A stretch of DNA of 64,000 nucleotides. It comes from Pseudomonadota bacterium. Its GTDB lineage: Bacteria > Pseudomonadota > Alphaproteobacteria > Micavibrionales > UBA2020. The notes beneath the pieces are model-generated. The model did no database searches, was not told where the DNA came from, and was given only the letters and a program-made list of their open reading frames with translations. Positions 3,983 through 36,829 of this stretch are shown piece by piece; the stretch's first letter is position 1, and every line of letters starts with the position of its first letter. The stretch covers positions 76,577 to 140,576 of the forward strand of contig JAJZVA010000002.1 of NCBI GenBank assembly GCA_021845905.1, in the 5' to 3' direction. A program made the translations under genes and the position numbers.

Positions 3983-4617
3983 TTGCCGCCGCGTTTGTTG
4001 CGCGGTTTTGCCGCAGGCGGCGTTTCCTTGCCGCCCAGCTTTTCGGCCAGTTTGACGATCTCCGCCAGCACCGGCGCGTTTTGCACGGTGAGGCCGGCCA
4101 TGTCGGCATAATCCTGCAGACTCGGCATGATGGGATCTTCACTGTCTTCCAGCGAAAAGGCGCTGTATCGCGCGCGGATCTCCTGCAGCTGTTCCGGCGC
4201 GGCGGTCTTTGCGAACTGTTCCATTTCTTTCATGTCCGTAAGGATCCCTGCGGCGATCAGCGTGAACGCGCCCTGGCGCGCTTCGAGGGGAATCCGGGGG
4301 AATTTTTCCACGCCGGCAGGGTGCGTGCCGTAGGCATAGGCGATCATGTAATCGACGGCTTGCACGGGCAAAGCCGCTTCGATCCGCCGGTTCAGCGCGG
4401 CATCTTCATTGTAAACGGCAGCCATTTGAACCGGCAGCGCCACCGCCGCCGCGATCAGCGCGGGATCGTTGGGATAGAGGGCGGAAACCGTTTCGGCGAT
4501 TTTCAGGACCTGATCGTCAAAATCGACCATCCCCTGATCGACGTATTTTTTCAGGAACGCATAGGCAGCTTTGACCTCGGGATGCTGTGAAAGTGTTGTC
4601 TCTTCAAAAGGTTTCAT
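3967..4617 (-). CDS. hypothetical protein (orphan) with basic/proline C-terminal tail ..KPRNKRGGNGPRP
   Basis: 216-aa ORF with GC3-rich codons, inserted convergent to tkt and divergent from gap; AT-rich upstream region 4618-4779; no motif recognised. Confidence 0.6.
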   Translation of the reverse strand: MKPFEETTLSQHPEVKAAYAFLKKYVDQGMVDFDDQVLKIAETVSALYPNDPALIAAAVALPVQMAAVYNEDAALNRRIEAALPVQAVDYMIAYAYGTHPAGVEKFPRIPLEARQGAFTLIAAGILTDMKEMEQFAKTAAPEQLQEIRARYSAFSLEDSEDPIMPSLQDYADMAGLTVQNAPVLAEIVKLAEKLGGKETPPAAKPRNKRGGNGPRP

Positions 4618-4779
4618 ATTATTCTCTCCATAATTTTAATTTTTACCATAACGCGGGAGAACTTATAGCATATCTGAAAAATGTCAACACCCTATGTGAA
4701 ATAATAATCATACCAACCCTTTAGCTCGACCGCAAACTGGCGTACAACAAAAACACAAAGGTATTTTGAGGAGAACATC

Positions 4780-11234: not shown

Positions 11235-11558
11235 TTATTCTTCGGGTTCGGATCCGGGGGCGAGCGCGACGGCGAGCCCGTCCATGTCTTCGCTCAATAT
11301 GATCTGGCACGCAAGACGTGAATTATCCCCGACTTCAAAGGCGTTGTCCAGTTGCGCGATTTCATCTTCCGTGGCGGCGGGCAGCTTTTCCCGCCAGGCT
11401 TCATCCACATAGACGTGGCAGGTGGCGCAGGCGCAGGCGCCGCCGCATTCCGCCTTGATGGGCAGCTTGCCGTCGCGGATGACCTCCATCAGCCGCCAGC
11501 CTTCGAGACCGTCGAGCGTTTGTTCTTTTCCGTTCCTGTCTTTCACGCGGATTTTCAT
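11235..11558 (-). CDS. 2Fe-2S ferredoxin (adrenodoxin/putidaredoxin type)
   Basis: 107 aa from ATG 11558; C-x5-C-x2-C..C pattern ([16 protein letters not shown]); longer track ORF is an upstream extension. Confidence 0.85.
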
Positions 11559-12352
11559 GTTTTCGCGCGCCGCCCGCCGCCGAGGATCTCTTTCAGCGCG
11601 AAGCCCGCCGCCGCGGTCAGCAGGCTCGACGTGAACAGCGACAAGGGCGCGGCGAGAAGATTGAGCAATGTTTGCTGCTGCATGGAAAGGCCGATGCCCG
11701 CGCCCGTCGCGGGGACGCTGTTGGCGAGCACCGCGCCGAGCAGCAGCTGGAAGACGATCATCACCGGAAAAATGCCGAGCAGCGCCATGCCGATCAGCCG
11801 CAGCGAGAACATCGCCCCCCATGTCTTGCGCAGGACACTGCGGATCGGGTGGCCGACGGCGGCGAGAACGGGCACGATGCCGAGACGCGCGCCCCAGAAC
11901 AGCGCGCCGATGATGAGCAGTTCGCCCGTGCCCGCCAGCGCGCCGAGGATGCCCGGCTTTTGCGTCAGTTTCTCGATATGCAGGAGGACGCTGAAGGCCG
12001 TGATGATCGTCATGTTGAAGAGGATGAGGCTGAGCACGGAGGCTTCCATGTCGCGGCGCCGCATGCCGCGCGCGGCGGCGTCGGCGGGCAGGCGGTCGTG
12101 GCGTTCGCCGAGAATCAGGAGGCGCGTCTCCACAAAAAGGAACCATGACAGCAGCAGCATCGAGGGCAGGTTCCAGAGATAAGCCTCGATCTCCGAAGCG
12201 CCGGGCCTTTCATACTGGATGAACAGCGCGCAGGCGATTTGCGCGACCATGGGCACGAGCGCGATTTTGGCCAGATACGCCCTCTCGCGCCAGACGAAAA
12301 GGTAGGCGTTTTTGACGGCGGCGGATATGCTGAACCGGCTGTAGTTGTTCAT
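11555..12352 (-). CDS. hypothetical polytopic membrane protein
   Basis: 265 aa, about 6 hydrophobic segments; stop overlaps ferredoxin start (ATGA at 11555-11558), implying co-translation. Confidence 0.6.
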   Translation of the reverse strand: MNNYSRFSISAAVKNAYLFVWRERAYLAKIALVPMVAQIACALFIQYERPGASEIEAYLWNLPSMLLLSWFLFVETRLLILGERHDRLPADAAARGMRRRDMEASVLSLILFNMTIITAFSVLLHIEKLTQKPGILGALAGTGELLIIGALFWGARLGIVPVLAAVGHPIRSVLRKTWGAMFSLRLIGMALLGIFPVMIVFQLLLGAVLANSVPATGAGIGLSMQQQTLLNLLAAPLSLFTSSLLTAAAGFALKEILGGGRRAKT

Positions 12353-17667: not shown

Positions 17668-19296
17668 ATGACAGAGGCGTTCGAGCTTCCGCGCGAGGTC
17701 GCCACCGCCTACCGCGCCGCGCCGCAAAAAGCCTTGCGGGTGCTGGCGGCGCTGGCCGACGGCAACGGCCTCAAGGCGGAACAGTTGCGGCTCGTCAGGG
17801 ACGAGACGGAGATCCATATGATCCCCGCCGCGATCACCGTCACGCTTGCGCCGGACATGGCCAAATCGCAGGTGCGCGGCCGCAACCCGCAAGGGGAGGC
17901 GCTGGGCAGCGCGGCCGAAATCATGGCCGCCGCCGAAGCGCTTTTGCCGCAGTTTTTAGAGGGCGAAGCCGCGCGGCAGGAGATTCTCGAAGTCGTGCGC
18001 CGTCTTCCGGGCGAAGGCTTCGGCATGGCGGCGACAAGCATTCCCCTCAAATCCGCGCAGAAGGTTTTCTCGACCGTCGCGCCCTGCGCCGCTTGCGCGG
18101 GCGAAGCGGTCATTCCCTGCCAGCTTTGCCGCGGCACGGGGCGGATGCCCTGCCAGGCCTGCCGCGGCGCGGGCTTCTCGCCCTGCGCCGGTTGCGGCGG
18201 CGGCGGACTTCTGCCGCCCGATGCCGCGGGAAACAGCATGCCCTGCCCGCGCTGCCAGCGGACGGGAAAAATAACCTGTCAGGTTTGCAACGGCGCGCGC
18301 GAGACGGGCTGTCAGGCCTGCGGAGGTCAGGGACGGACGGGCTGCCCGTCTTGCGGACAGACGGGCGCCGAGACGCTGGTTTATCAGATGTCCGCCACGG
18401 CGCGGTGCGTCTTCAAGATCGACTGGCGCAAGGCGCCGCCCGGGGTCAAAGACGTTTTCGAAAAGCTCGGCGGGGATAAAATCGTCGCCCGCAAGCATGC
18501 CGAGGCCTACTGGCAGCTGCCGGAGGTGCGCGGCAAGGAGCTTGTCATCGACGGTCTCGCCTGTTTTCCGGTTTCCGCCGCGACGTTTTCGGTGGCGGGG
18601 AAGATGTTTCCCGCCACGGTCGCGGGGCTGCAGGGCCGCATCGTCACGATGGATCCGGTGCTCGACCCGTTCGTCAAGCCGGGAATTTCCGCGCTGGTCA
18701 AGCTCGCCAAGGGGCCGCTCGCCGCGGCGGCGCTGATCGATACCGCCTGCAAATACAAGCTGACGCGCCGCGTGCTGGCCGACGTGGCGCGCCGCCCGAA
18801 AAAAACGGTCTATCAGGCGCTGGTCGGCGAATACGGCGCGCTGCTGTCGGACAAATACGCCCGCGCCGCCGTCACCAGCGCCGCGCGCGCGCTGCAGGCC
18901 ATCAGCAACGGCCCGCGCGGCAGGGGGCTTGCGCTCGGCGCCGCTCTTTCCGCCGCGCTCGCCGTCGGATATTACATGACGCCGCTCCGTCTTTCCCTGT
19001 TTGCGGCGCTGGCGCAAAGGGGCCTTGAAAAATATATCGCGCTTGCGGATATTGCCGTCGGCCTCGCCGGCGCGCTTCTGACCGTTGTCCTGATCCGCAT
19101 GATGGCGGCGTCGGCGCTGAAAAAAATCCTGCCCGCGGCGGTGCGGGCGGAAGAGACCGGCGGCGGCGCGTCTTTCCGCCCCGGCGCGGGAACGCAGGGA
19201 TTGCTGGCTTTTCCGCTCTGCGCGGCCGTTTCCGTCGCCGCTGCGGCGCTGGCGGCGCACAAGCCGGAGTGGATCATGGTTTTGCTGCGGCGGTGA
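17668..19296 (+). CDS. hypothetical protein with eight CxxC (DnaJ CR-like CxxCxGxG) motifs and C-terminal TM helices
   Basis: 542 aa; aa 140-229 = CAAC..CQLCRGTG..CQACRGAG..CAGCGGGG..CPRCQRTG..CQVCNGAR..CQACGGQG..CPSCGQTG; 3-4 hydrophobic helices in the last ~120 aa. Confidence 0.7.
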   Translation: MTEAFELPREVATAYRAAPQKALRVLAALADGNGLKAEQLRLVRDETEIHMIPAAITVTLAPDMAKSQVRGRNPQGEALGSAAEIMAAAEALLPQFLEGEAARQEILEVVRRLPGEGFGMAATSIPLKSAQKVFSTVAPCAACAGEAVIPCQLCRGTGRMPCQACRGAGFSPCAGCGGGGLLPPDAAGNSMPCPRCQRTGKITCQVCNGARETGCQACGGQGRTGCPSCGQTGAETLVYQMSATARCVFKIDWRKAPPGVKDVFEKLGGDKIVARKHAEAYWQLPEVRGKELVIDGLACFPVSAATFSVAGKMFPATVAGLQGRIVTMDPVLDPFVKPGISALVKLAKGPLAAAALIDTACKYKLTRRVLADVARRPKKTVYQALVGEYGALLSDKYARAAVTSAARALQAISNGPRGRGLALGAALSAALAVGYYMTPLRLSLFAALAQRGLEKYIALADIAVGLAGALLTVVLIRMMAASALKKILPAAVRAEETGGGASFRPGAGTQGLLAFPLCAAVSVAAAALAAHKPEWIMVLLRR

Positions 19297-19315: not shown

Positions 19316-20440
19316 ATGATGAGGAAGTTCTGTTTTCTTGCTGTTTTTCTGATCTGCGCGGCGGCGCTTCCGGCGCGGGCGCAGATCGTCCAGCCGCCCG
19401 TGCCGCAGGAGACGGCGGAGAAAGACGGGCGCATCGGCACGGTCATCGACGTCGAAGGCCCCGCCGTCCTCACGCCGGTCGGCGGCATGCCCGCCGAAGC
19501 CGCCGTCAACATGCCGGTTTATCTCAACGACATCGCGCAGACGGGCGCGCACGCCCGGCTCTTCATTTTGTTCATCGACAACACCAACGTCGTCCTCTCG
19601 TCCAACGCCATGTTGCGGATCGACAAATACGTTTACGATCCCGATGACGCCACCAGCGCCGACAACAACGCCACTTATACCATCGAGGGCGCGTTCGAAT
19701 ACGTCAGCGGACTGATCGGCCACCGCAAGGACCCGGACGTGCATGTGGAAACGCCGGTCGGTTCCATCGGCATCCGCGGCACGGACTTCTGGGCGGGGCC
19801 GATGGACGGCCAGTATCAGGTGGCGGTGAACGAAGGGCGGGTTTCGCTCAAGACAGACGGCGGCGAGGAGATCGTCAACAAGGGCGAGGGCACTTACGTG
19901 CGCGGCATGTTCGACCGCCCGGCGCCGGCGGAAATCTGGAGCGCGGACAGGTTCCGGCGCATGGCGGCGGAAGTGCGGCTCGCGCGCTATGCCGCGGCCC
20001 TGCGGCGCATGCACGCGCTGCAAAGCCGCCAGCCGGCGTTCAGGGAGGTTTACCGCGCCTATGTGCGCCGCGCCCATCCGCATTGGCTGCGGGATCTTCA
20101 TCCGCGCGGGATGGAGGGCAAAACCGGCGCGGAAAGAATCAGGCAGGAATGGAACGCGCGCAAGTCCGAAGCCGCGCCCGGCCGCGCGGAGAAGAGCCGG
20201 ATGGAAAAAGACCGCACCGAGATGTGGCGGAGCCGCTGGCGCGCCTGGCGGCAACAGCACAGCCACGGCATGCGCGAACAACAGGGTCTGCCGCAGAAAA
20301 ATCAGCAGCGGGAAAGCCTCCGGCCGGAAGACCGGCAACGGGAAAAAGGCGCCGCGCGTCGCCGCGCCCGGCAGACATGGGAAAAAGACCGTGAACGCGG
20401 GGCGAAGAAGCGCCGCGCCGCCGAGGGCACGCGGTATTGA
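19316..20440 (+). CDS. secreted FecR-domain protein with long Arg/Glu/Lys-rich C-terminal half
   Basis: 374 aa; signal peptide MMRKFCFLAVFLICAAALPARA|Q; FecR-like beta region (..VETPVGSIGIRGTDFW..VAVNEGRVSL..); starts 19 nt after the preceding stop. Confidence 0.7.
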   Translation: MMRKFCFLAVFLICAAALPARAQIVQPPVPQETAEKDGRIGTVIDVEGPAVLTPVGGMPAEAAVNMPVYLNDIAQTGAHARLFILFIDNTNVVLSSNAMLRIDKYVYDPDDATSADNNATYTIEGAFEYVSGLIGHRKDPDVHVETPVGSIGIRGTDFWAGPMDGQYQVAVNEGRVSLKTDGGEEIVNKGEGTYVRGMFDRPAPAEIWSADRFRRMAAEVRLARYAAALRRMHALQSRQPAFREVYRAYVRRAHPHWLRDLHPRGMEGKTGAERIRQEWNARKSEAAPGRAEKSRMEKDRTEMWRSRWRAWRQQHSHGMREQQGLPQKNQQRESLRPEDRQREKGAARRRARQTWEKDRERGAKKRRAAEGTRY

Positions 20441-20505: not shown

Positions 20506-22518
20506 TTAAAGCGCCGTCGCCGCGCCGGAAGAGCGCGCCATGCCGAGCGCATCGCGCACTTTGGCGACGATCGCCGCGGCATCGAGCCCCGCCTCTGCAT
20601 ATTGCTTTTCCGGCGTGTCGTGGTCGATGAACGCGTCGGGGAGGACCATGGCGCGGACTTTCAATCCGTGATCGAGCAGCCCCGCATCCGACAGATGCTG
20701 CAAAACAAAAGCGCCGAAGCCGCCGACCGACCCTTCCTCGATGGTGATCAGAACCTCATGATTGCGCGCGAGATCTTCCGTCAGTTCCTTATCCAGCGGC
20801 TTGGCGAAGCGCGCGTCGGCGACCGTGGCGGAAAGCCCCAGCGCCGCGAGCTGGTCGGCCGCCTTCAAGCATTCCTGCAACCGCGCGCCGTAACTGAGCA
20901 GCGCGATTTTTTTGCCCTGTCGCACGATCCTTCCCTTGCCGATCGGCAACACCGCGCCGCGTTCCTTCAATTCCGGGCCCGGCGCGCTCTGCGCGCCTGA
21001 TAAATTTTCAGGGCGCACAGCGCCCGTGCCGTTGCCGCGCGGATACCTTAAAGCGACCGGCCCGTCGTTATAGGCGACCATCGTTGCCGTCATGTCCTGC
21101 AATTCACGCTCGTCCGCCGCCGCCATCAAGACGAAATTCGGCAAACAGCCGAGATAGGCGACGTCGAACGACCCCGCGTGGGTCGCGCCGTCCGCGCCGA
21201 CCAGCCCCGCGCGGTCGATGGCGAATTTCACCGGCAGGTTCTGGAGCGCCACGTCGTGCACCACCTGATCGTAGGCGCGCTGCAAAAACGTCGAATAGAT
21301 CGCGCAGACCGGCTTGAAGCCCTCCGCCGCCAGCCCCGCCGCGAAGGTCACCGCGTGCTGTTCGGCGATGCCGACGTCGAACATGCGCTCCGGAAACGCC
21401 TTCTCAAACAGGTCCAGCCCCGTGCCCGCGGGCATCGCGGCGGTGACGGCGACGATCTTGTCGTCATGTTTCGCTTCGGCGATCAGGCTTTCGGCGAAAA
21501 CTTTGGTATAGGAGGGCGGCGCGTTGTGCGGCTTCTTTTGCGCGCCGGTCACGACGTCGAACTTCGCGACGCCGTGCATCTTGTCGGCGGCGTTTTCGGC
21601 GGGCGCGTAACCCTTGCCCTTTTTCGTCACCACATGAATGAGAATGGGCCCCGGATGCGCGCTGTTTTTCACGTTTTCCAGCACCGGGAGGAGATGGTCG
21701 AAGTTATGCCCGTCGATCGGGCCGACGTAATAAAAACCCATCTCGCCGAACAGCGTGCCGCCGGTCCAGAACCCGCGGGTATATTCCTCCGCCTTGCGCG
21801 CCGCTTCTTTGAGCGGGGGCGGCAGTTTGGCGACGGCTTTCTTGCCGATCTCGCGCATGCTGAGATAAGCCTTGCCGGAAATGAGGCGCGAGAGATAAGC
21901 GCTCATCGCGCCGGTCGGCGGCGCGATCGACATGTCGTTGTCGTTCAAAATCACGATCAGGCGGTTTTTCAAATGCCCGGCGTTGTTCATCGCCTCATAG
22001 GCCATGCCGGCGCTCATCGCCCCGTCGCCGATCACCGCGATAACATGATTTGGCGGCGCAAGCGCGACTGCCGCGCCTTGCGCGGCCGATATATTTTTCG
22101 CCTTCAAATCCCGCGCCACCGCCATGCCCAATCCGGCGGAAATCGAGGTCGAGCTGTGCGCCGCGCCAAAGGGATCGTATTCGCTTTCGCTCCGTTTGGT
22201 GAAACCGGACAAGCCGCCGCCCTGCCTTAAGCTGCGAATACGGTCCTTGCGTCCGGTGAGGATTTTATGCGGATAGGCCTGATGCCCGACATCCCAGATC
22301 AGCCTGTCGTCCGGCGTGTTGAAAACGTAATGGAGCGCGCATGTCAGTTCGACCACGCCCAGCCCCGCGCCGAGGTGTCCGCCGGTCACCGCGACGGCGG
22401 AGATCATTTCCCGCCGCACTTCTTCCGCCAGTTGCGGCAGATCTTCCTTGTCGAGGCGGCGCAAGTCCTCCGGCGTGTTGATGTCATCGAGCAGGGACAA
22501 TGCGAAGGCTTTCTTCAA
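20506..22518 (-). CDS. dxs: 1-deoxy-D-xylulose-5-phosphate synthase
   Basis: 670 aa; ..[36 protein letters not shown]..; [18 protein letters not shown] motif. Confidence 0.96.
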
Positions 22519-23423
22519 AGGCGGCGTTGCAGGACGTAGTAGGCAAGGTCTTTCAAAAGGTCGGTGCGGCCTGCGTCGAACACGCGCAGGTGCGCCGCCG
22601 CCTGTTCGACCAGCATCTCGGCGCGCGCGCGCGCCTGTTCGCGGCCCATGGCGGTGACGAAGGTGGATTTCTTTCCGTCCTGATTGGCGGGCTTGCCCAT
22701 TTCCTTCGCGTCGCCCTCGGCGTCCAGCAGGTCGTCGGTGACCTGAAAGGCGAGGCCGAGGTCGTGCGCGTAATTGCGCAGCGCCTGACGGTGCGCGGGG
22801 TTGGCTTTGCCCAAAATCGCCCCCGCTTCGCAGCAGAAGGCGATCAGCTTGCCGGTCTTGAGGCGCTGCAGGCGGCTGATGGTGCCGACGTCGAATTCCT
22901 GTTTCTCGCCGATCATGTCGAGCATCTGCCCGCCGACCATGCCGTGCGGCCCGATGGCCGAGGCCAGCAGAGAAACCAGTTCGATGCGCACGCGCGGGTC
23001 CTCATGCGTCTCGACGTTGGCGATGATGTCGAAGGCCAGCGCCTGCAGGCCGTCGCCCGCCAAAATCGCCGTCGCCTCGTCATAAGCCTTGTGCAGCGCG
23101 GGCTTGCCGCGTCTTGTATCGGCATTGTCCATCGCCGGAAGATCGTCATGCACGAGGGAATAGCTGTGGATGAACTCGACCGCCGCCGCCACGCGCCTTG
23201 CCCTGGCCGCGTCGACGCCGAAAATCCGCGCCCCTTCCATCACCATGAAGGGCCGGAGGCGCTTGCCGCCCGACAAAACCGCATAGCGCATGCCGTCGAA
23301 CAGCGGCGCTTCGGCCAGTTCCGTCCCCGGCAGGAGGCTGGACATCGTCTTGTTGACGCTCTCGCGGCAGGCCTCCATGGCCTGTTGCAGTTTGGGCGAC
23401 GCCTCGCGGGGGGATGGAGCCAT
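22515..23423 (-). CDS. ispA: (2E,6E)-farnesyl/geranylgeranyl diphosphate synthase
   Basis: 302 aa from ATG 23423; [21 protein letters not shown] and [13 protein letters not shown]; stop overlaps dxs start. Confidence 0.9.
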
Positions 23424-23540
23424 GTTGAAAAACTCTTTCGGTGGTAATGGTTGGAACGAATGCAATCAGGAGTGATTCTTTATAACCTATCGCGGGCGAA
23501 AAAGTCATCCTTTTCAGAAATTTAATTTATGAAAAGGTAT

Positions 23541-23569
23541 TTGACATTATGAAATCTATCGGTTACTAA
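23541..23569 (+). promoter_or_regulatory. candidate sigma70-type promoter TTGACA-17-TACTAA for the ankyrin-like pair
   Basis: In the AT-rich 150-bp spacer 23466-23617; shares the 9-mer ATTTGACAT with the sites at 12457 and 52555. Confidence 0.3.
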
Positions 23570-23617
23570 TATTCCATATCTTTATAATGATTCGTTCCCT
23601 GAAAAAAAGAAGCCAAA

Positions 23618-24649
23618 ATGTTCGGACGCGAAGCCAGAAGAAGAAAAGAAGAACAAAGACAGCTGGAACAAAGGAAAGAAAACCTGCTGGCCGCGGCGCG
23701 GAACAACGATACCGCCGGCGTGGTGAAATATTTCATGCGCCGCCCGGTTGTGTTTGATGCCTGCCTTGCCGCCGTGGAGGCGGGTTCCGTCGATGCGCTG
23801 AAGGCTTTATTGCGGAGAAACCTGGGTTTTGACTTTTCGGAATTCAGAGACCAGGACGTTCTGAAAGCAAAGCGTCTCGTCAATGCAGCGCGCGGCTCCG
23901 ATAAAGCCGACGCCTTGCTCACCGTCCTTTTCGCGGCAAACGAAACAACGGAATGCGGCAAGCTGCACCAATCGACGTTCATTTGTCCTGAAATCTCCCA
24001 CGACATACTGAGATGCATCCTGCTCATGACGCCATCAACCTTCGAGACCGCCATCGACGTTATCGGCCTTGAGGATACCGACAGGTTGAAATTCATCCTC
24101 GCCTTTCTGCCGAAGGACGGCAGCGGGCAGGGCGCGCTTGACAAGGCGCTGAGCGTTTCCGCTGAAAGAAACGACGTTGAAAAAGCGCAAATGCTCCTCG
24201 ACAAGGGCGCGAACGCCAATCATGCCGAGGCGCAGGCGTTGCAAAACGCGGCGATGGCCGGTCATATGGACATGGTCTGTCTGTTGTTGCTGCATGTCGA
24301 TCTTCTGCTCTACGGCAACGACGTCTCGGCGCAGGTCGAGCATGCCCATCCCGACCTCGCGAAGCTGATCGCCGACGCGACCGCGATTTGCTTCCAGGAA
24401 GAAGAAAGCCCCTTTGTCGCGCTCAATAAAAACATTCTGGAGGAGCGGCAAACGCTCTCCGGCGGCAAAACGCTGACCACGATATTCAATTTCGAGACAC
24501 GGCAGCAGCATAACGCCATCGAAACGCCGCAGGGAACGGAGAAAATGACCACCGTCAACTTCAAGGATATCGATGCCGGCGTCCTTGAAAAAATGCGCCG
24601 CAAACTCGACGGACTCAACGCTGCAAAACGCCTCGTCAACAAACCTTAA
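23618..24649 (+). CDS. ankyrin-repeat-like hypothetical protein, paralog A1
   Basis: 343 aa; MFGREARRRKEEQRQLEQRKE charged N-terminus; ANK-like ..AERNDVEKAQMLLDKGANANHAEAQALQNAAMAGHMDMVCLLL..; conserved C-terminal module ..TLTTIFNFETRQQHNAI..VNFKDIDAGVLEKMRRK. Confidence 0.7.
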   Translation: MFGREARRRKEEQRQLEQRKENLLAAARNNDTAGVVKYFMRRPVVFDACLAAVEAGSVDALKALLRRNLGFDFSEFRDQDVLKAKRLVNAARGSDKADALLTVLFAANETTECGKLHQSTFICPEISHDILRCILLMTPSTFETAIDVIGLEDTDRLKFILAFLPKDGSGQGALDKALSVSAERNDVEKAQMLLDKGANANHAEAQALQNAAMAGHMDMVCLLLLHVDLLLYGNDVSAQVEHAHPDLAKLIADATAICFQEEESPFVALNKNILEERQTLSGGKTLTTIFNFETRQQHNAIETPQGTEKMTTVNFKDIDAGVLEKMRRKLDGLNAAKRLVNKP

Positions 24650-24662
24650 AGGAGAAAAAACC

Positions 24663-25709
24663 ATGTTTGGACGCGAAAGAAAAGCGCGGGAGCGCGCGGA
24701 AGCGGAGCGGCTGGAACAGGAGGCGCGCAAGGCGGCGGCGCGCGCCGCGGACGAGGCGCGGGCGCAAAAACAGCGCGAAGGCCTGGAGGCGGCGCTCAAG
24801 ACGGACGATCCGTCGCTGTTCGACGAGCAATATTTCGTTTTCGACGTCAGCCCGGTCAACAGAATCTACGATGCCGCGAAAAGAGCCATTGCGCAAAACG
24901 CGCCGAAAGTCTTTCATGCGCTGACCCACGGAAAGTTTCCGAACTACTACAGCTCCTTCACCTTCGGGAGCACATGGGAGGAATCAAAACAGAACGTCCG
25001 CCTGTTGCTCGCCGACATATCCGCATCCGCGGAGCCGGGCCTCTTCTGGGAGATCATGCGCGACGGCAATGAAAAATCGACCGTGGATAAACCACGGCTT
25101 GCTTCCGCGGAGTTTCTGACCCCCGCCGCGTCGCCGGAATTCATCCATGACCAGCTCCTCAAGAATCCGGAGCTCTTCACGACCTGCCTTCGCGACATCG
25201 GCGTTCGGGATCCGGAAAAGCTGGAGCTTATCCTTGCCTTCGCGCCGAAAGACGACAGCGCGCACATCGCGCTGGTCGCGGCGGTGGTGGAGGTCTCTCG
25301 AAATGAGGACGCGCTTGATCAGCTCGCGGCGCTTTTGCCGCATATCGATCTGGCGCGGCACGGCGCGCACATGGCGGCGCTGGTCAGGTTTTTCAACCCC
25401 GAGATGGCAAAGCTGATTTCGGATGCGACGGAGATCATGCGCTGCACCCCTGAGGCGGAAGAAACCGTCCATCCGGCGCAGGAGAGCGACATACACGTTG
25501 AAAAGCAGGCCATTCCCGGCGGCGGCACGCTGACGGCCATCTTCAACTTCACGCTCAAACAGCAGCATAACGTCATCAGGATGCCGGGCGAAGACCCTGT
25601 CGCGACCACCGTCCAGTTCAGGGACATCGACAAGGGCGTTCTCGCCGCGATGCGCCGAAAATACGACGCCGCGCAAAAACCGCCGGAAAGCCCGCCGCCC
25701 GCGCCTTAA
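24663..25709 (+). CDS. hypothetical protein, paralog A2 of 23618-24649
   Basis: 348 aa from ATG 24663 (RBS aaaggag); MFGRERKARERAEAERLEQE..; shares LILAFAPKD.., AKLISDATEI.., ..TLTAIFNFTLKQQHNVI..VQFRDIDKGVLAAMRRK with A1. Confidence 0.7.
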   Translation: MFGRERKARERAEAERLEQEARKAAARAADEARAQKQREGLEAALKTDDPSLFDEQYFVFDVSPVNRIYDAAKRAIAQNAPKVFHALTHGKFPNYYSSFTFGSTWEESKQNVRLLLADISASAEPGLFWEIMRDGNEKSTVDKPRLASAEFLTPAASPEFIHDQLLKNPELFTTCLRDIGVRDPEKLELILAFAPKDDSAHIALVAAVVEVSRNEDALDQLAALLPHIDLARHGAHMAALVRFFNPEMAKLISDATEIMRCTPEAEETVHPAQESDIHVEKQAIPGGGTLTAIFNFTLKQQHNVIRMPGEDPVATTVQFRDIDKGVLAAMRRKYDAAQKPPESPPPAP

Positions 25710-25882
25710 GCTCAGGACCTGTTCATTTCGTGAATTCCGCGCAGAGTGAAAATGCCGATCACGCAAGGAAAAGCCCGACGACGCGTAGCTGGAAGCGTCC
25801 GCGCAAGGGCTTTGACGAAGCGCGGCGGCTTTTTTCGCTTTCCCGCAAAGTCCATGCGGTATATGTCGATCGGTCCTGAACT

Positions 25883-26119
25883 TTATTCCGAAACGGAGAA
25901 TTTCTCCGTTTTGACCGCGCCGTCATTGCCGAGCGTGATTTTCTCGATGCGGGTCTGCGCCTCTTTCAGCTTGTCCTCGCACAGCTTCTTGAGCGCCATG
26001 CCGCGCTCGTAAGAGGCGATCGAGGCGTCAAGGTCCGCGCCGCCGGATTCGAGCTGGCGGACGATCTTCTCCAGTTCGGCGAGGGCGGATTCGAAGGTGA
26101 CGTTTTTCTCGGCGGCCAT
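25883..26119 (-). CDS. xseB: exodeoxyribonuclease VII small subunit
   Basis: 78 aa from ATG 26119 with strong RBS aaggaggg; ..FESALAELEKIVRQLESGGADLDASIASYERGMAL.. Confidence 0.9.
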   Translation of the reverse strand: MAAEKNVTFESALAELEKIVRQLESGGADLDASIASYERGMALKKLCEDKLKEAQTRIEKITLGNDGAVKTEKFSVSE

Positions 26120-27007: not shown

Positions 27008-27712
27008 TTATGCCGTCCTTGCCGCATTGGCGGCATTCGTTTTGTCCGCCGCATTGGCGGCATTCGGTTTCGTCGCGTCCGCGGCATTCGGTTTCATCGC
27101 GTCCGCGGCATTCGGTTTCGTCGCGTCCGCGACGAGGCCGAGGTTGATCTCCAGCGCGCCGCACAGCATCTGCCCGAGGGTGATGTGCATCTCCTGAATG
27201 CGCGCGGTGGTGGCGGAGGGCACGTTGAGAAGAATGTCGCACAGCGGCGCCATCTCGCCGCCGGTCCTGCCGGTCAGCCCGGCGGTGACGATGCTCATTT
27301 TCTTCGCTTCGGCCAGCGCGTTGATGACGTTTTTGCTGTTGCCCGAGGTCGAGATGCCGATGGCGAGATCGCCTTTTTTGCCCAGCGCCGCGACCTGCCT
27401 TGCGAACAGGTGCTCGAAGCCGAAATCGTTGCCGATGGCGGTCAGCGAAGAAGTATCGGTGGTCAGCGCGACGGCGGCGATCGGCGCGCGGTCGGTTTTG
27501 TAGCGCACGGTCAGCTCGGTGGCGAGGTGCTGCGCGTCGCCCGCGCTGCCGCCGTTGCCGAAAAAGAGGATCTTTCCGCCCGCCTTGATGGTGGCGGAGG
27601 CGGCGAGCAGCAGCTCCTCGAACGGCTCGAGCAAGGCGGCGCGGGTCGCCTGTTGCACCGCTTCATGCTCGGCGAATTCCTCCGCCCAGAAACGCTTGCA
27701 TGTGAAGGTCAT
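27008..27712 (-). CDS. SIS-domain phosphoheptose isomerase family (GmhA/DiaA-like) with ~40-aa repetitive C-terminal extension
   Basis: 234 aa; [18 protein letters not shown] and ISTSGNS blocks; tail [33 protein letters not shown].. Confidence 0.85.
27021..27128. repeat. 24-bp in-frame tandem repeat (3 near-perfect copies 27057-27128 plus degenerate copies 27021-27056) encoding the (A-D-A-T/M-K-P-N-A)n tail
   Basis: gcggcattcggtttc[g/a]tcgcgtcc x3 read directly. Confidence 0.9.
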
Positions 27713-30726: not shown

Positions 30727-31206
30727 TTACGTCTTTTTGCTGTCGCGGTGAGTGACGTGCTGGAATCCCGCCGCAAAAGAGAAAAGCCGCTCTTTCAGAA
30801 ACGCGGGTTTTAAATCCGTTTCGCGCAGGTCATCGGAAGAAAACCATGAGCTGGTGATGGGCGTGCCGTTTGTGTCGGTCTTGGGCACGGCAAGCGGTTC
30901 GGGCAGCGCGGCGCGGTAGAAAACCATCAGTTCGTGAAAGTCCCGCCGTTCGCTGACAAAGAAATTTTCGACGACGCCCGCGAGTTCAAGGCTGTCGGGC
31001 GCGCAGTGCAGCTCCTCGCCGATTTCGCGTATGACGGCTTCTTCCGATGTTTCGCCGAAAGCAACGCGTCCGCCCGGCATGAACCAGTAATCATGCGCGT
31101 CATGTTGCTGCAGAAGGATTTTCCCTGCGCGGAAAACGAGGAAAGCCACGCGGATATTGAGCTTGCCCCACGGCGTTTGCAGCGTGAGGTCTTTGCTTTC
31201 CGGCAT
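30727..31206 (-). CDS. NUDIX hydrolase
   Basis: 159 aa from ATG 31206; Nudix box GGRVAFGETSEEAVIREIGEELH; start overlaps upstream stop by 1 nt (TGATG). Confidence 0.8.
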   Translation of the reverse strand: MPESKDLTLQTPWGKLNIRVAFLVFRAGKILLQQHDAHDYWFMPGGRVAFGETSEEAVIREIGEELHCAPDSLELAGVVENFFVSERRDFHELMVFYRAALPEPLAVPKTDTNGTPITSSWFSSDDLRETDLKPAFLKERLFSFAAGFQHVTHRDSKKT

Positions 31207-32411
31207 CACGCCGTCTCTTTGAACAATTCCCGCCCGATCAGCATGCGGCGGATCTCGCTCGTGCCCGCGCCGATCTCGTAGAGTTTCGCGTCGCGCAATA
31301 ATCTGCCCGCCGGATAATCGTTGGTATAGCCGTTGCCGCCGAGGCACTGGATGGCGTCGAGCGCCATCGCGGTGGCTTTTTCGGCGGAATACAAAATCGC
31401 GCCCGCCGCGTCCTTGCGGGTCACTTCGCCGCGGTCGCATGCCTTGCCGACGGCGTAAACGTAAGCGCGGGCGGTGTTCATCATCACATACATGTCGGCG
31501 AGTTTGCCCTGCATGAGCTGGAATTCGCCGATGGATTGGCCGAACTGCTTGCGCTCGTGCAAATAAGGCAACACGATATCGAGGCAGGCCTGCATGATGC
31601 CGAGCGGCCCGCCGGACAAGACGGCGCGTTCGTAATCGAGCCCGCTCATCAGCACTTTCACGCCCTTGCCGACCTCGCCCAGCACGTTTTCCTCCGGCAC
31701 TTCGCAGTTATCGAACACCAGCTCGCAGGTGTTGGAGCCGCGCATGCCGAGCTTGTCGAGCTTCTGCGCGGTGGAAAAACCCTTGAATGTGTTCTCGACC
31801 AGAAACGCGGTGATGCCTTTGCTCCCCGCCGCGGGATCCGTCTTGGCGTAGACCACCAGCGTCGCCGCGTCGGGGCCGTTGGTGATCCACATCTTGTTGC
31901 CGTTGAGGACATAGCGGTCGCCCTTTTTCTCTGCCTTGAGTTTCATCGAAACGACGTCGGAGCCCGCGCCCGGCTCGCTCATGGCGAGCGCGCCGATCTT
32001 TTTGCCGGCGCAGAGGTCGGGCAGGTATTTTTGTTTTTGCGCCGGTGTGCCGTTGAGGTTGATCTGGTTGACGCAGAGGTTGGAAAACGCGCCGTAAGAG
32101 AGGCCGATGCTGGCGGAGGCGCGTGAAATTTCCTCCATCGCAACGATGTGCTCGATGTAGCCCATGCCGGTGCCGCCGTATTCCGGATCGGCGGTGAGCC
32201 CGAGCAATCCCAGTCTGCCCATTTCAGGCCAGAGGTCGTTGGGGAAGGCGTTGTCGTGGTCGACCTGCGCCGCGATCGGCGCGATCTCCTTCTGCGCGAA
32301 ATCCTGCACTGTGGCGCGCAAGGCGTCCGCCGTTTCGCCGAGGTCGAAGTTCAGCGACGGAAAATCCTGCGCCTTGGGAACATAAGTTTCTTTCTTTTGA
32401 GCCTGTGTCAT
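31206..32411 (-). CDS. ivd: acyl-CoA dehydrogenase, isovaleryl-CoA dehydrogenase-like
   Basis: 401 aa; ..[27 protein letters not shown].., C-terminal ..[19 protein letters not shown]. Confidence 0.88.
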
Positions 32412-32568
32412 GAGTTTTTCCTCATTGATTCTTTAAGGTAAAATACCAATCGGAAATATAAAGCAAATGACGGCAAAGGGCGACGCCCTATATTTTTACA
32501 TAGTCATGAAGATATTCACTGTGCAACAGGCCGATTGTTGTTAAGATGATTCGCCAGGGAGGATTATC

Positions 32569-32775
32569 ATGAATGAATTTCTTTTATCGTTTTACGACAG
32601 GTGTTTTAAAGGCGTGCGGGGCACGTATTTCAGTTGCGTGCGGGGCACGACAGCCATCGAATACAGCCTGATCGTCGGCGGGATCGCCGTGGCCATTTCC
32701 GTAGTCGTTTTTGCGGTCGGCAGCGATCTCAAGGTGCTGTTTCAGGCTATCGCCACGATGGCGGCGAAATTCTGA
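32569..32775 (+). CDS. flp: Flp/Fap-family type IVb prepilin (orphan: no tad/cpa genes in window)
   Basis: 68 aa; processing-site motif G|TTAIEYSLIVGGIAVAI; RBS gggagga. Confidence 0.75.
   Translation: MNEFLLSFYDRCFKGVRGTYFSCVRGTTAIEYSLIVGGIAVAISVVVFAVGSDLKVLFQAIATMAAKF
32612..32649. repeat. 24-bp-period duplication inside the flp leader (gcgtgcggggcacg at 32612 and 32636) duplicating the VRGT residues preceding the cleavage site
   Basis: 14-nt perfect core repeated with 24-nt offset; protein reads ..KGVRGTYFSCVRGT|TAIEY. Confidence 0.8.
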
Positions 32776-32828
32776 TTTTATGAATATGCAAGAATAAGAT
32801 AAATTCCCGTTGCCTTTATATGTTTATC

Positions 32829-33113
32829 GTCCTAGGGTCAGACCTCATTAATCTATGGCAATTCTACGCGAAGCGAAAATGGCGATCCTGCAATGACAAG
32901 GCTGCAGAGCGTAGCGGTTGCTACGGTCAAAGCCTTGGAAGCCGCAGGGCGTCATTTTCGCCGCGCCCGGAAGGGTAAGCCCTCGGCCGCACCGTCTGCG
33001 GCGTCAAAGCAACTGAAGCGTGGGATCCACCACGCTTTCGTTGCTTTTCCTTGCATCCAATACGGCGCAGGGCTTATATAATTCCATAGATTAATGAGGT
33101 GTGATCCTAAGAC
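32829..33113. mobile_element. 285-bp element bounded by 30-bp imperfect terminal inverted repeats (MITE-like, or a structured RNA with a long closing stem)
   Basis: Left gtcctagggtcagacctcattaatctatgg (32829-32858) versus reverse complement of 33084-33113, 27/30 match; interior is G+C-richer than flanks and full of local hairpins. Confidence 0.35.
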
Positions 33114-33148
33114 TTGGGGCATTATAAAACATAATAAAGGAATTTATC

Positions 33149-33298
33149 ATGCATATCGTCATGAAAGACCTCGCCTCCAGCCTTGATTCCATCGCCGCGC
33201 CGCCGCGTCCGCAAGAAACGGCGGAAGAGATGATCAGCGCAAAGCAGGCGCGTCTGCGTGACGCCCGCCGCCGTCCGGCGGTCAAGTTCCGCCGCTGA
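33149..33298 (+). CDS. possible 49-aa small protein (not in supplied ORF track)
   Basis: ATG 33149 with aaagga 7-8 nt upstream; MHIVMKDLASSLDSIAAPPRPQETAEEMISAKQARLRDARRRPAVKFRR*; speculative. Confidence 0.25.
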   Translation: MHIVMKDLASSLDSIAAPPRPQETAEEMISAKQARLRDARRRPAVKFRR

Positions 33299-33323
33299 GC
33301 GGCGAAGCGCGCGCCGGTTCTTT

Positions 33324-34049
33324 TTATTGCGGATACAGCGCGGCGTAGAAGCCGTAAGCGCCGCTGCCGTTGCTGACGCACATTTGCTTCATATTGACGC
33401 AGGCCGCGCAGGCCGTCGCGTCGATGGTCACCGTCGCGTCGCTGGTGAACAGGCTGGTGAAGGCGGTGGAGCTCATTGTCGGGATCGCCGTCGTGCCGTT
33501 GACGATCTGGTTGATGCGCGCGCAATAGGCCGCGTTCTCGACATTGGCGGTGAAGACGGTGTCGCCGGGGCCGGAATCGGTCGGCCCGACGCCGACGATG
33601 ATCGCCCCGGGGTCGATGCCGTAGCCCGACGCCACCGGCGTGCCGGAATTGGAACTGGCGGAAAGATAAGAGACGCCGCCGCCGCTCGGATAAAAGAGTT
33701 CCAGCGCGTGGTTCGAATCGCCGCTCGCGCCGCTTTCATAGGTTGCGTCGCCCGGTTTGGATAGATCGAGGCTGCTGTAAAGCGTGTCGGCCTGCGCGTA
33801 GCCGGAAACCACCATCTCGTTGAGCGCCTGCCCGATCGTCGCGGTATAGGCGAGCATGCGGTTGATCTGGTCGTCTTCCGTCTGCTGCGGCAGGACGTTC
33901 GACTGGTCTTTGGAATAGTTGGCGATGGCCAGCGTCAGGAGGCCGAAGATGAAAATGCCGATCAGCACCAGATAAAGAATGCTGCCGCGCGCGGGTTGTT
34001 TTTCCGGCGGGTTGTTTTCCGTTTTTTCTCGCGGCGCTTTTGTTTTCAT
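33324..34049 (-). CDS. hypothetical pilin-like protein (charged N-terminus, single N-terminal hydrophobic helix, Cys-rich C-terminal region)
   Basis: 241 aa; ..QPARG|SILYLVLIGIFIFGLLTLAIANY.. resembles a degenerate class III (prepilin) signal lacking Glu5; Gly/Ser/Thr-rich body; C-terminal ..ATACAACVNMKQMC.. Confidence 0.55.
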   Translation of the reverse strand: MKTKAPREKTENNPPEKQPARGSILYLVLIGIFIFGLLTLAIANYSKDQSNVLPQQTEDDQINRMLAYTATIGQALNEMVVSGYAQADTLYSSLDLSKPGDATYESGASGDSNHALELFYPSGGGVSYLSASSNSGTPVASGYGIDPGAIIVGVGPTDSGPGDTVFTANVENAAYCARINQIVNGTTAIPTMSSTAFTSLFTSDATVTIDATACAACVNMKQMCVSNGSGAYGFYAALYPQ

Positions 34050-34146
34050 GGACGATCCCCGTTCCTTGCGAGAATCCTAAAGCTTCCGCCGTCAAAATAG
34101 AAGGCTTCTTCGTGAAAAACGGCCTTTCGGGGCGGAAAACCGCGAT

Positions 34147-34183
34147 AAAAAAAGACCCGGCCTCGGGAGGACGGGTCTTTTTT
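34147..34183 (-). terminator. bidirectional intrinsic terminator hairpin downstream of the Clp-like gene
   Basis: aaaaaaa-GACCCG-gcctcgggagga-CGGGTC-tttttt: A-run and T-run flank a GC stem. Confidence 0.6.
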
Positions 34184-34207
34184 GTAAAAGCGGCGCTGTG
34201 CCGGAGA

Positions 34208-36829
34208 TCAGGCGCCGGGATTTTGCCCGACCGCCCGCTTCTTGCGCGCGGCGCTTCTCTTTTTCGTCACGACGTTGTCGTTGGCGGTTTCGCTCGCCGG
34301 CGGCTCGTTCGGGACGATCGACGGAGCGACGGCGTAACGCCGCTTGTCGTTCATTTCGATCGAGTTGATGACGATCGTCACCGCGCTCTTTTCCGAGGCC
34401 TTCTCGATTTCCTCGCGGTTTTCCATCAGCCACTTGGTGAGCGGATTGATGATCTTGTCGCGAATGACCTTGTCCATCGGACGCGCGCCCATCGTCGGGT
34501 CGTAGCCCATCTTGCAGAGCTCGTCCATCACCTTGGGGGCGACGGAAAGCGACACGCCGGAGAGGCCCTGGCCGTCCGCGTTCGAAAGGCGGGCGCTGAT
34601 GTCGCCGATCTGTTTCTTGGCGATCAGCGCGACGACTTCCTTGGCAAGCGGCAGATAGGTGATGAAGCCGCCGAGCATGTTGATGCGGTTGACCATCTCC
34701 GGACGGAAGAGCGCCGCGCGCGCCGGCGCGAAGGCCGTGGCGGGAATCGGCTGGCTGATGGCTTGGGCGTAGATTTTCTCCAGCGCCGTTTTCAGCTCTT
34801 CCGGTTCGAGGGTGTTCTTCCCGAAGCCCATGCCGCCGGTTTTTCCGCCCTTGGAGATGAGCTCCATGGCTTCGGACGCGCCAGCATTGGTCGTCATCAG
34901 GATGATGGTGTTGTTGAACTTGATGGTGTTGCCGTGGTTGTCCGTCGTCTGGCCGTCCTGCAGGATGGGCAGAAGGATGTTGAACACGTCCGGGTGCGCC
35001 TTTTCGATTTCATCGAGCAGGAGAATAGTGTAGGGGCGCTGGCGGATCTGTTCGAACACCGGCTCGGAATCCTCGAAGCCGACGAAGCCCGGAGGCGCGC
35101 CGATCAGGCGGGAAACCGCGTGCTTTTCGGCGTATTCGGACATGTTGAGGGTGATCACCGCGTCTTCGGAACCGAAGAGGTAGCGGGCGAGCGCCTTGGC
35201 GGTTTCGGTCTTGCCGGTGCCGGTCGGGCCTTGCAGCACGAAGCAACCCCACGGCTGGCGCGGGTTGGGCAGGCCGCCGCGCGCGCCGATCAGCGCGTCG
35301 GTGATGCGCAGGAGGTCGGGCTGGCCGAGCACTTTCTTCGGCAGTTCCTCTTCGAGCTTGAGGAAACGCTCCTTGTCCTTCTGCGCGAGGAAGTCCTGCG
35401 ACAGGCCGGACATTTGCGACACGGCGGCGATGATGTCCTTGCGCGTCACGGTTACGCGGCCGTCGAATTCCGCGCCGGAAGCGGCGGTATTCATGGCTTT
35501 TTCGCCCTTGCGCGGCTGGGCTTCCTGCGGCGCGAAGCGGTTGGTCATGGTGATGAGGTATTTGAGGTCGTCGTCCGAGATCGCTTCCGAGAGACCGTTG
35601 TGCTCCTCCGTCAGCGGCCACAGCTTGCGCAGGATGGCGAAGGTCGTTTCATCGTCCGGCGGCATGAGGCGCGTCTTCTCGAAGCGGCTGGCGAGCGCCG
35701 GGTCCTTTTCGATGTGCTTGCGGTATTCCTTGTCGGTGGTCGTGCCGAGGACGGAGACGCCCTTGGCGGTGAGGAACGGCTTCATCATGTTGCCGGCGTC
35801 CGTGCCGCCCTGGGCCATGCCGGCCGTGAGCTGCGAGTGGATTTCGTCGATGGCGAGGATGATCTTCTTGCCGCGGAAGATGCCGCCGCGCTCGGCGAGG
35901 CCGTCGATCAGCGGTTTCAGCCTTTCCTCGAATTCGCCGCGGAACTTTGCGCCGGCGTTCATGCTTTGCAGGTCGAGTTCGAGGACGCGCGCGCCTTCGA
36001 GGCTGATGGGCAGCTTGCCCGTTTCGGCGTTGTCGACGAGATACTGGGCGATGCCGGAGAACATGGTGCTTTTGCCCACGCCGGCGTCGCCTGTGAAGCA
36101 CTGGCTCGACTGCTTGCGGCGGCCGAGGACGCGCATCGCCTGCTCGATTTCCTGATCGCGGCCGATGACGGGGTCAAGATCGCCGCGGCGGGCCATTTCG
36201 GTCAGGTCCTTGCAGTATTTGACAAGGGCCTGCTCGAGCTGGCTGTCGGAGATTTTATAGTTGCGCTGCGCCGTATTGTTGAACGGCACGCGCACCGGAC
36301 GCGGCTTTTGCACCGCGAGCCGCGGCGGAACGGGCGCGCCGTGCGCGGCGCGCGCGGTTTGGGCGATGCCGTTCGTGTGTTGCGGCGGCAGGGAGAGATA
36401 GACCGTGCCCGGCTGGTTCGCGGGCGAATCGACGTTCTCGAAGCGCGCCGGGAAGTCGGCGCCGAAGTTTTCCTGCGCGATGAGTTTTTTCGATTCGGGG
36501 GTCAGTTCGAAGGCGATGCGTCCGCCGGCCGAAGGTACGGCCCTGTAGGTGACGTCAATCGTCTCGCCTTCATAGTCGCCCGCGTTGGTCATGGCGATCT
36601 TGTAGACAGTGACGGTGACTGCCGCGCGGGTGCCGCTGACGGTCATCATTTGCTTGTCGTCGAACGCGTAGATTTTCTGCCCCGCCGCGAGCGGTTCGCC
36701 ATTATAGGCGTGCAACGGCCGTTGCGGTTCCCCATCCTTGAATTCCAGCGCGTACTGGCGGGTGCTTTTGGCGTCCGTCAGGTAGATGAAGCCGTTGAAG
36801 TTTTCGGTGTTGGCGGGATCTGTCGTCAT
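34208..36829 (-). CDS. atypical two-ring Clp/Hsp100 AAA+ ATPase lacking Clp_N and M-domain, with an unrecognised ~215-aa N-terminal domain
   Basis: 873 aa; D1 ..DLDPVIGRDQEIEQAMRVLGRRKQSSQCFTGDAGVGKST.. Walker B ILAIDEIH; D2 ..VLQGPTGTGKTETAKALA.. Walker B ILLLDEIEKAH, ..RPEMVNRI..; N-terminal 215 aa beta-rich with no Clp_N repeat; basic tail ..TKKRSAARKKRAVGQNPGA. Confidence 0.85.
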   Translation of the reverse strand: MTTDPANTENFNGFIYLTDAKSTRQYALEFKDGEPQRPLHAYNGEPLAAGQKIYAFDDKQMMTVSGTRAAVTVTVYKIAMTNAGDYEGETIDVTYRAVPSAGGRIAFELTPESKKLIAQENFGADFPARFENVDSPANQPGTVYLSLPPQHTNGIAQTARAAHGAPVPPRLAVQKPRPVRVPFNNTAQRNYKISDSQLEQALVKYCKDLTEMARRGDLDPVIGRDQEIEQAMRVLGRRKQSSQCFTGDAGVGKSTMFSGIAQYLVDNAETGKLPISLEGARVLELDLQSMNAGAKFRGEFEERLKPLIDGLAERGGIFRGKKIILAIDEIHSQLTAGMAQGGTDAGNMMKPFLTAKGVSVLGTTTDKEYRKHIEKDPALASRFEKTRLMPPDDETTFAILRKLWPLTEEHNGLSEAISDDDLKYLITMTNRFAPQEAQPRKGEKAMNTAASGAEFDGRVTVTRKDIIAAVSQMSGLSQDFLAQKDKERFLKLEEELPKKVLGQPDLLRITDALIGARGGLPNPRQPWGCFVLQGPTGTGKTETAKALARYLFGSEDAVITLNMSEYAEKHAVSRLIGAPPGFVGFEDSEPVFEQIRQRPYTILLLDEIEKAHPDVFNILLPILQDGQTTDNHGNTIKFNNTIILMTTNAGASEAMELISKGGKTGGMGFGKNTLEPEELKTALEKIYAQAISQPIPATAFAPARAALFRPEMVNRINMLGGFITYLPLAKEVVALIAKKQIGDISARLSNADGQGLSGVSLSVAPKVMDELCKMGYDPTMGARPMDKVIRDKIINPLTKWLMENREEIEKASEKSAVTIVINSIEMNDKRRYAVAPSIVPNEPPASETANDNVVTKKRSAARKKRAVGQNPGA

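Follow-up and report, generated by a model that had tools for sequence, protein, structure and literature searches.

In the present study, we analysed a 64,000-nucleotide stretch of contig JAJZVA010000002.1 from a bacterium of the phylum Pseudomonadota (the whole stretch is hereafter called the window). The analysis centred on two adjacent paralogous genes, A1 and A2, which lie between ispA and xseB and encode ankyrin-family proteins that share a C-terminal domain.

Gene organization and expression signals of the ispA-xseB interval

A1 (23618-24649, 343 amino acids) and A2 (24663-25709, 348 amino acids) are both on the plus strand, and the public gene calls of six independent assemblies of the same organism gave them identical starts. 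The genes around them are on the minus strand. On the left, dxs encodes 1-deoxy-D-xylulose-5-phosphate synthase (20506-22518; Pfam DXP_synthase_N, E 1.6e-116) and ispA encodes a polyprenyl/farnesyl diphosphate synthase (22515-23423; Pfam polyprenyl_synt, E 1.4e-54), for which the gene callers gave a 302-residue product; ispA is divergent from A1. On the right, xseB encodes the small subunit of exonuclease VII (25883-26119; Pfam Exonuc_VII_S, E 1.3e-20) and is convergent with A2. A preliminary description of this DNA had proposed that xseB, ispA and dxs are normally contiguous and that two plus-strand paralogs of 343 and 348 residues lie between them here. Both statements held: in Escherichia coli K-12 the three genes are contiguous on one strand, and A1 and A2 aligned over their full length with 32% identity (BLASTP, E 1e-41). 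Because the three genes abut in E. coli K-12, the xseB-ispA-dxs operon is interrupted in the window. Compared with the canonical operon of E. coli, the three genes, their order and their strand are identical. In the window, however, 2.46 kb of genes on the opposite strand divide the operon, ispA-dxs has acquired what is probably a conserved promoter of its own, and xseB has become the last gene of another transcription unit. The locus cleanly illustrates how an inserted gene can split an old operon while the essential genes downstream evolve a probable new, conserved promoter.

The divergent promoter region between ispA and A1 (23424-23617, 194 bp) is AT-rich, with 33% GC compared with 62% for the whole window, and contains blocks conserved in four lineages. 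The likely promoter of A1 and A2 (23541-23569, plus strand) consists of TTGACA (23541-23546), 17 nucleotides and TACTAA (23564-23569). This element had been named in the preliminary description; its sequence was found as described, and the TTGAC of the -35 element was kept in three of the four lineages, but the site was not called by a consensus promoter scan, which passed over it because the -10 hexamer ends in A. A perfect TATAAT was also observed at 23583-23588 on the plus strand. On the minus strand, ATGACT (23508-23503), 17 nucleotides and TATAAA (23485-23480) form the likely promoter of ispA-dxs (23480-23508). Read on the plus strand, this promoter corresponds to the block TTCTTTATAAC and the palindrome-like block GAAAAAGTCATCTTTTTC, which lie within 23476-23516 and are near-invariant in the window and in three of the related loci described below (L010, L013 and L017), while the flanking ankyrin proteins are just 30-50% identical. 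The 7-bp inverted arms of these blocks could alternatively be an operator.

A2 is preceded by an AAGGAG ribosome-binding site (24649-24654, plus strand) in the 13-nucleotide spacer between the two genes. Downstream of A2, an inverted repeat forms a terminator-like, GC-rich hairpin followed by a T run (25793-25837, plus strand; arms 25793-25804 and 25820-25831). The RNA fold z-score of the hairpin was -2.7, and it was not called by a terminator scan. Taken together, the likely promoter, the short spacer with its ribosome-binding site and the probable terminator define A1 and A2 as a two-gene operon.

Ankyrin repeats and C-terminal domain of A1 and A2

A1 is composed of a basic N-terminus, a charged helix, an ankyrin-like helical solenoid, a linker, a C-terminal domain and a basic tail; A2 is a paralog of A1 minus one ankyrin repeat, and its tail is not basic. 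As described earlier, both proteins open with MFGRE followed by a highly charged helix, which was predicted at residues 2-28 of A1 by AlphaFold. Pfam detection located canonical ankyrin repeats at residues 175-228 of A1 (24140-24301, plus strand), where the scores of Ank_4 (33.2 bits), Ank_2 (32 bits) and Ank_3 (27.5 bits) were above the respective thresholds of 22.7, 27.3 and 22.3. No Pfam ankyrin match was obtained for A2 at E <= 1, which agreed with the earlier claim of a clear ankyrin-like repeat in A1 that A2 lacks. In the alignment of the two proteins, A2 had a gap of 28 residues, approximately the length of one repeat, opposite residues 187-214 of A1. The lack of a match is explained by this gap, which removes one repeat, and on its sequence A2 would count as a member of the ankyrin family only by homology to A1. 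The ortholog of A2 at L010 (P0014) keeps the missing repeat, indicating that the loss in A2 was secondary. Collectively, the paralogy and the Pfam scores of A1 supported the earlier proposal that repeat proteins were amplified here in tandem.

The AlphaFold model of A1 had a predicted local distance difference test score (pLDDT) of 89 and was all-helical over residues 2-260. Its best fold matches in the PDB were DARPins and the ankyrin domains of MIB1 and FEM1C, and these matches were weak (E approximately 1e-2, template modelling (TM) score 0.27-0.41). The N-terminal 140 residues of A1 showed no significant likeness to the canonical repeats (hhalign probability 1.2%) and none to the ankyrin proteins of the PDB (E at least 0.12); an ankyrin nature of this part was therefore unsupported by profile-profile comparison. 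Two canonical ankyrin repeats within an ankyrin-like helical solenoid are a fair description of A1. Neither A1 nor A2 was matched by the NCBIfam models.

The C-terminal domain lies at residues 262-335 of A1 (24401-24622, plus strand), directly before the tail AKRLVNKP, and at residues 267-338 of A2 (25461-25676, plus strand), where hmmsearch with a profile of the module gave 79.9 bits (E 1.6e-23). Modelled in isolation, the A1 domain of approximately 75 residues was predicted with confidence (AlphaFold pLDDT 95.9, predicted TM score 0.83) to consist of five antiparallel strands followed by one helix. The module aligned between A1 and A2 and over 48 members of the family. In the 48-module alignment, the core reads LP.G..LTTLFNF..RQQ, then V.F.DI, then the helix, with G22, L25, F29, N30, F31, Q35 and F54 as near-invariant positions. 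No Pfam family matched the C-terminal region of A1, of A2 or of the 48 isolated modules at E <= 1. A sequence profile search of the PDB returned nothing (best E 0.34), and Foldseek found nothing significant in the PDB (best E 0.15, TM score at most 0.54 over 40-50 columns) or in BFVD, where the best matches were uncharacterised phage proteins (E 8e-3). The PDB matches, such as phenolic acid decarboxylase, CdiI and LolA, are generic beta meanders, and neither they nor the BFVD and profile matches were considered meaningful. We also considered a DNA-binding role of the AP2 or Sso7d type, which was dropped because the A1 module has a net charge of about -1 by hand count and no such fold was matched; acidic residues are also common in the modules of other members. 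Within the searched resources (Pfam, NCBIfam, PDB and BFVD), the module is an undescribed domain, so the novel conserved C-terminal module announced in the preliminary description was borne out. This domain deserves a family entry even if the proteins are not exported.

We further examined whether the module occurs outside these proteins. In the loci scanned, every occurrence of it was at the C-terminal end of an ankyrin protein of the A1/A2 family. Among the best 150 matches of the exhaustive search, every sequence read that had the module also had the ankyrin part, and the rest matched ankyrin-repeat positions only. No match was obtained by tblastn against plasmid and phage collections, and the viral contigs held no relative of the module. 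When the module alignment was used as the query of a word-indexed protein search, there was no match at all, and even the proteins from which the alignment had been built were missed. Because the module was never seen on other cargo, the targeting or secretion domain that had been suggested earlier is disfavoured in a generic, cargo-independent form.

Family distribution, copy number and evolutionary rate

Only three proteins, including A1 itself, were found by a word-indexed search among 5.8 billion. An exhaustive profile search yielded full-length members, 325-520 residues long, for roughly 50 clusters at 50% identity, with one representative per cluster. Thousands of its other matches were generic ankyrin proteins, which aligned with just the two canonical repeats. 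The members that were read share a short basic N-terminus, the solenoid, a linker rich in Pro, Ala and Glu, the module, a second linker and usually a short basic tail, with some pieces variable. The N-terminus itself is conserved, being MFGKKKKW-like in most members and KPKGW..LS.ED..WAK in a distant subgroup. These results indicated that the family is rare and lineage-restricted, occurring in uncultured alphaproteobacteria-like bacteria.

In the related loci, a recurrent order was observed: dxs-ispA, the opposite-strand ankyrin gene or genes, xseB, uppP or PAP2, a SIS-domain gene, a lipoprotein gene, ispH, thrB and rnhA. The slot between ispA and xseB holds two family copies in the window, three in L010 (from the metagenome-assembled genome 'Proteobacteria bacterium LL3.bin49'), two in L013, one in L017, which belongs to the distant subgroup, and at least one in L009; the last three loci are from metagenomes of the Joint Genome Institute (JGI). 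The preliminary description had presented the pair as inserted at this site. The interruption of the operon stood, but a local novelty did not: the synteny comparison showed that the occupied slot is not unique to the window, and since five diverged lineages have family members in it, a recent horizontal insertion was rejected. As the slot is shared across lineages and the copies vary, the insertion is an old, clade-wide and vertically kept feature, with recurrent duplication. In a neighbour-joining tree, A1 paired with copy 1 of L010 and A2 with copy 2, and copy 3 stood apart. This pairing showed that the array had multiplied before the window and L010 split and that the window is without copy 3.

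Members were also found outside this slot, after lysS in two lineages and beside mazG. Two members lie 3 kb apart on one contig (L019). The largest array (L016, 7615-13909) has five tandem members of 359-520 residues between dapF and dciA-efp and comes from a groundwater-well metagenome at a landfill site. A patatin-like phospholipase gene lies a few kb upstream of this array, and a HEPN AbiU2 gene lies approximately 1.6 kb upstream of it. The tree indicated that the tandem expansions arose independently. In another locus (L011), a separate small canonical ankyrin protein of 152 residues (5015-5473) is encoded convergently, directly after the family member P0006.

The conservation of position bears on what the proteins do. 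A1 and A2 might be endogenous cytoplasmic adaptors, which would use the solenoid and the C-terminal domain to organise or regulate some process specific to the clade, while their basic ends would attach them to nucleic acid, a hub protein or a membrane. This explanation is the main rival to the effector interpretation discussed below, and we consider it a serious, though not the favoured, possibility. It is consistent with the position between ispA and xseB, which is kept even by the single-copy distant member, with the second conserved slot after lysS, with the isoprenoid and envelope genes nearby (dxs, ispA, uppP or PAP2, the SIS-domain gene and ispH), with the conserved motif at the extreme N-terminus, and with the absence of a hydrophobic N-terminal stretch in A1 and A2 (read from the sequence, not by a signal-peptide predictor). 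However, the copy number ranges from one to five through independent duplications, and there is no consistent functional linkage, because members elsewhere have unrelated neighbours. The rate of change of the proteins also speaks against such adaptors.

To compare evolutionary rates, we calculated non-synonymous (dN) and synonymous (dS) divergence between the window and L010 by the Nei-Gojobori method. The neighbouring genes were well conserved: ispA showed 94% amino acid identity (dN 0.036, dS 0.47, dN/dS 0.08), dxs 88% (dN 0.093, dS 0.60, dN/dS 0.16), the SIS-domain gene 85% (dN 0.115, dS 0.44, dN/dS 0.26) and ispH 80% (dN 0.143, dS 0.53, dN/dS 0.27). In contrast, A1 and copy 1 of L010 shared 50% identity (dN 0.47, dS 1.28, dN/dS 0.37), and A2 and copy 2 shared 39% (dN 0.64, dS 1.06, dN/dS 0.60). 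Non-synonymous change in the ankyrin genes was thus about 3-18 times that of the neighbours, and about 5-13 times when compared with dxs and ispA. The GC content at third codon positions (GC3) was 0.69 in A1 and 0.77 in A2, compared with 0.80-0.85 in the neighbours. The six strain assemblies contained too few differences for a population dN/dS.

A2 had the highest dN/dS, it is without one ankyrin repeat and the basic tail, and its strain polymorphisms, although few (2, 2 and 1 in three strains), are all non-synonymous. These features would be expected if A2 alone were a decaying duplicate under relaxed constraint that is no longer functional. We consider such decay very improbable, since all six public assemblies have an uninterrupted frame of 348 codons, the ribosome-binding site is strong, the family profile gives the C-terminal domain 80 bits, dN/dS is below 1, and the ortholog is retained in L010.

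Fast evolution and tandem arrays are also typical of immunity genes, and ankyrin-type immunity proteins have been described for polymorphic toxin systems. A1 and A2 might accordingly be immunity or decoy proteins that bind a toxin or phage protein, with the arrays serving as sets of immunity specificities. PADLOC gave partial matches to PDC-M72A and to its Ankyrin model, but these covered the ankyrin repeats only, being weak for A1 (PDC-M72A, E 1.3e-3) and absent for A2. With no full-length match and just ankyrin-to-ankyrin similarity, membership in a known anti-phage defence system in PADLOC was rejected. Apart from the HEPN AbiU2 gene near the five-copy array, no toxin, nuclease, Rhs, CdiA or defence gene was found beside any array; the flanking genes (ispA, xseB, mazG, lysS, dapF and dciA) are housekeeping genes, none with a toxin domain, and the proteins are large for immunity proteins. 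An immunity role is therefore improbable.

The rest of the window is a housekeeping chromosome segment that includes gcvP, tkt, gap, an aldolase gene, pheST, a ClpB-like ATPase gene, accC, gpsA, aroQ, hemC, hemD, fabF and mltG. It contained no rRNA, tRNA or Rfam match, and its transketolase was nearest to plasmid-borne alphaproteobacterial copies, with approximately 61% identity, which indicates no more than an affinity to the Alphaproteobacteria. Directly upstream of dxs, a 542-residue protein (17668-19296) has many zinc-finger-like CxxC/CxxCxG repeats, a hydrophobic C-terminal part and no significant Pfam family; the gene after it encodes a FecR-domain protein whose long tail is rich in Arg and Glu (19316-20440). 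This pair was present in all six strain assemblies. In L010, L007 and L017, an acyl-CoA dehydrogenase gene adjoins dxs. In L010, where this region spans 792-4997, the gene beyond it encodes a ClpB-like ATPase of 869 residues with an unusual N-terminus; in L007, it is followed by an Flp pilin gene and by a large gene without annotation that is truncated by the end of the contig. In the window (31206-36829), the dehydrogenase gene and the ClpB-like gene (873 residues) are instead on the far side of the cluster, past rnhA and a NUDIX gene. This switch of sides between the window and L010 implies that the segment was inverted or translocated, with a breakpoint adjacent to dxs. The gene that separates xseB from the SIS-domain gene also varies: it is uppP (BacA family) in the window and in L010, a gene for a PAP2 phosphatase in L009 and L017, and missing from L013 (3692-4562), which looks like non-orthologous replacement of undecaprenyl-diphosphate phosphatase. 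At the 3' end of the SIS-domain gene, a 24-bp tandem repeat (27057-27131, 3.1 copies, 96% matches) gives the protein a repeated C-terminal extension of the KPNAADA type, so that it has 234 residues compared with 203-204 in relatives; the repeat also overlaps a long upstream open reading frame of uppP. Four further open reading frames of the window, at 47746-49590 (614 residues), 33324-34049 (241 residues), 11555-12352 (265 residues) and 3967-4617 (216 residues), had high GC3 and no Pfam match at E <= 0.01.

Possible function and comparison with known systems

Ankyrin solenoids are protein-binding scaffolds, and the solenoid of A1 and its relatives would likewise be expected to bind a protein partner. 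The fast evolution, the tandem duplication, the several copies per genome and the constant C-terminal domain with its basic tail fit proteins that engage another organism. From these features we infer a binding role, export and a host or other target. Our tentative preference, which we hold as somewhat short of probable and which is close to the host-interaction effectors suggested earlier, is that A1 and A2 are effector-like binders aimed at another organism and exported by means of a C-terminal handle. The solenoid evolves fast and the genes duplicate in tandem, as expected for proteins targeting a host, a prey or a competitor. In this scheme, the constant C-terminal domain and basic tail would be the handle, by which the protein would dock to some export machine or to a partner that does not vary. 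The ankyrin content of A1, the small and restricted family, the lower GC3, the lack of a hydrophobic N-terminal stretch and the separate operon are further points on this side. The known export route in Alphaproteobacteria for such proteins without an N-terminal signal peptide is type IVA secretion, and our best guess for the docking target is accordingly a type IV secretion coupling protein of the VirD4 type.

The charge of the tails is in line with such a handle. Over the last 20 residues, the mean net charge was +2.5 in the family, compared with +1.05 in 41 window proteins (p 8e-5), and a basic motif was found in 25 of 58 family tails but in only one of the 41 window proteins. The corresponding net charge of A1 was +5. 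A positively charged C-terminus is the signal recognised by VirD4 in type IVA effectors (PMC12981334), and among type IV effectors the ankyrin proteins of bacteria form a recognised class that evolves fast (PMC3563639). A narrower proposal, that the strand-helix domain and the basic tail constitute a new bipartite export signal, by which an uncultured, metabolically complete clade of groundwater and similar habitats would deliver a fast-diversifying set of ankyrin binders into protists or other cells, is unlikely in our judgement. If it were true, it would place an effector-delivery module outside the classical intracellular pathogens. More generally, if A1 and A2 are exported, the domain would be a new delivery or docking module, and it would hint at hidden interactions of an uncultured clade with eukaryotes or prey.

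Several observations weigh against an effector role. In the window, central, fatty-acid, haem and isoprenoid metabolism look complete at 62% GC, which is not the profile of an obligate symbiont. No secretion-system gene was found in the 64 kb of the window or in the examined flanks (10 kb) of the related loci; this result and the complete-looking metabolism also favour endogenous adaptors. No member has a known host, and one of the relatives was sampled from a landfill-side groundwater well. The slot between ispA and xseB, kept across deep divergence, looks like that of a vertically inherited clade gene rather than a mobile effector. The dN/dS values of A1 and A2 are below 1, indicating that both genes remain under some constraint. 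Finally, the last 20 residues of A2 have a net charge of +2, and the last nine (PPESPPPAP) contain no basic residue. Most of what is known of ankyrin proteins in bacteria comes from intracellular pathogens and symbionts, and the family is notable because the hallmarks of conflict proteins, namely fast evolution, recurrent tandem duplication and repeat loss, occur here in high-GC, free-living-looking bacteria.

We compared A1 and A2 with three known groups of proteins. Like the PRANC/F-box ankyrin proteins of poxviruses and Orientia, they join ankyrin repeats in the N-terminal part to a small, conserved domain at the C-terminus, and they form multicopy families. The PRANC domain is helical, whereas the A1 domain has five strands and one helix; together with the lack of a Pfam match, this excluded membership in that group. 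The Bep proteins of Bartonella, which carry a bipartite type IV signal, are built from a variable functional N-terminal part, a folded C-terminal domain and a short basic tail. The layout of the A1/A2 family is similar, with a folded C-terminal domain of the same order of size (approximately 75-100 residues) after a variable N-terminal part and, in most members, a short basic tail. However, the domain of the family is mostly beta and always joined to the same ankyrin scaffold, in contrast to the helical BID domain, and no BID domain preceded the tail in A1, A2 or the 48 modules in the Pfam search.

The third group comprises the ankyrin type IV effectors, such as AnkA of Anaplasma, the Ank proteins of Legionella and Coxiella, and the products of the ANK genes of Wolbachia. 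A1, A2 and their relatives share with them the ankyrin repeats, the lack of a hydrophobic N-terminal stretch, fast evolution, duplication, repeat loss and, in most members of the family, a positively charged C-terminus (PMC3563639; PMC12981334). In contrast to those effectors, A1 and A2 belong to high-GC, metabolically complete bacteria with neither a secretion system nor a host known. Their slot is fixed among housekeeping genes and is not phage- or island-borne, and they carry the conserved five-strand-plus-helix domain, which is not known in those effectors. In summary, A1 and A2 belong to a known class, the bacterial ankyrin proteins, and what is new in them is the undescribed C-terminal domain.

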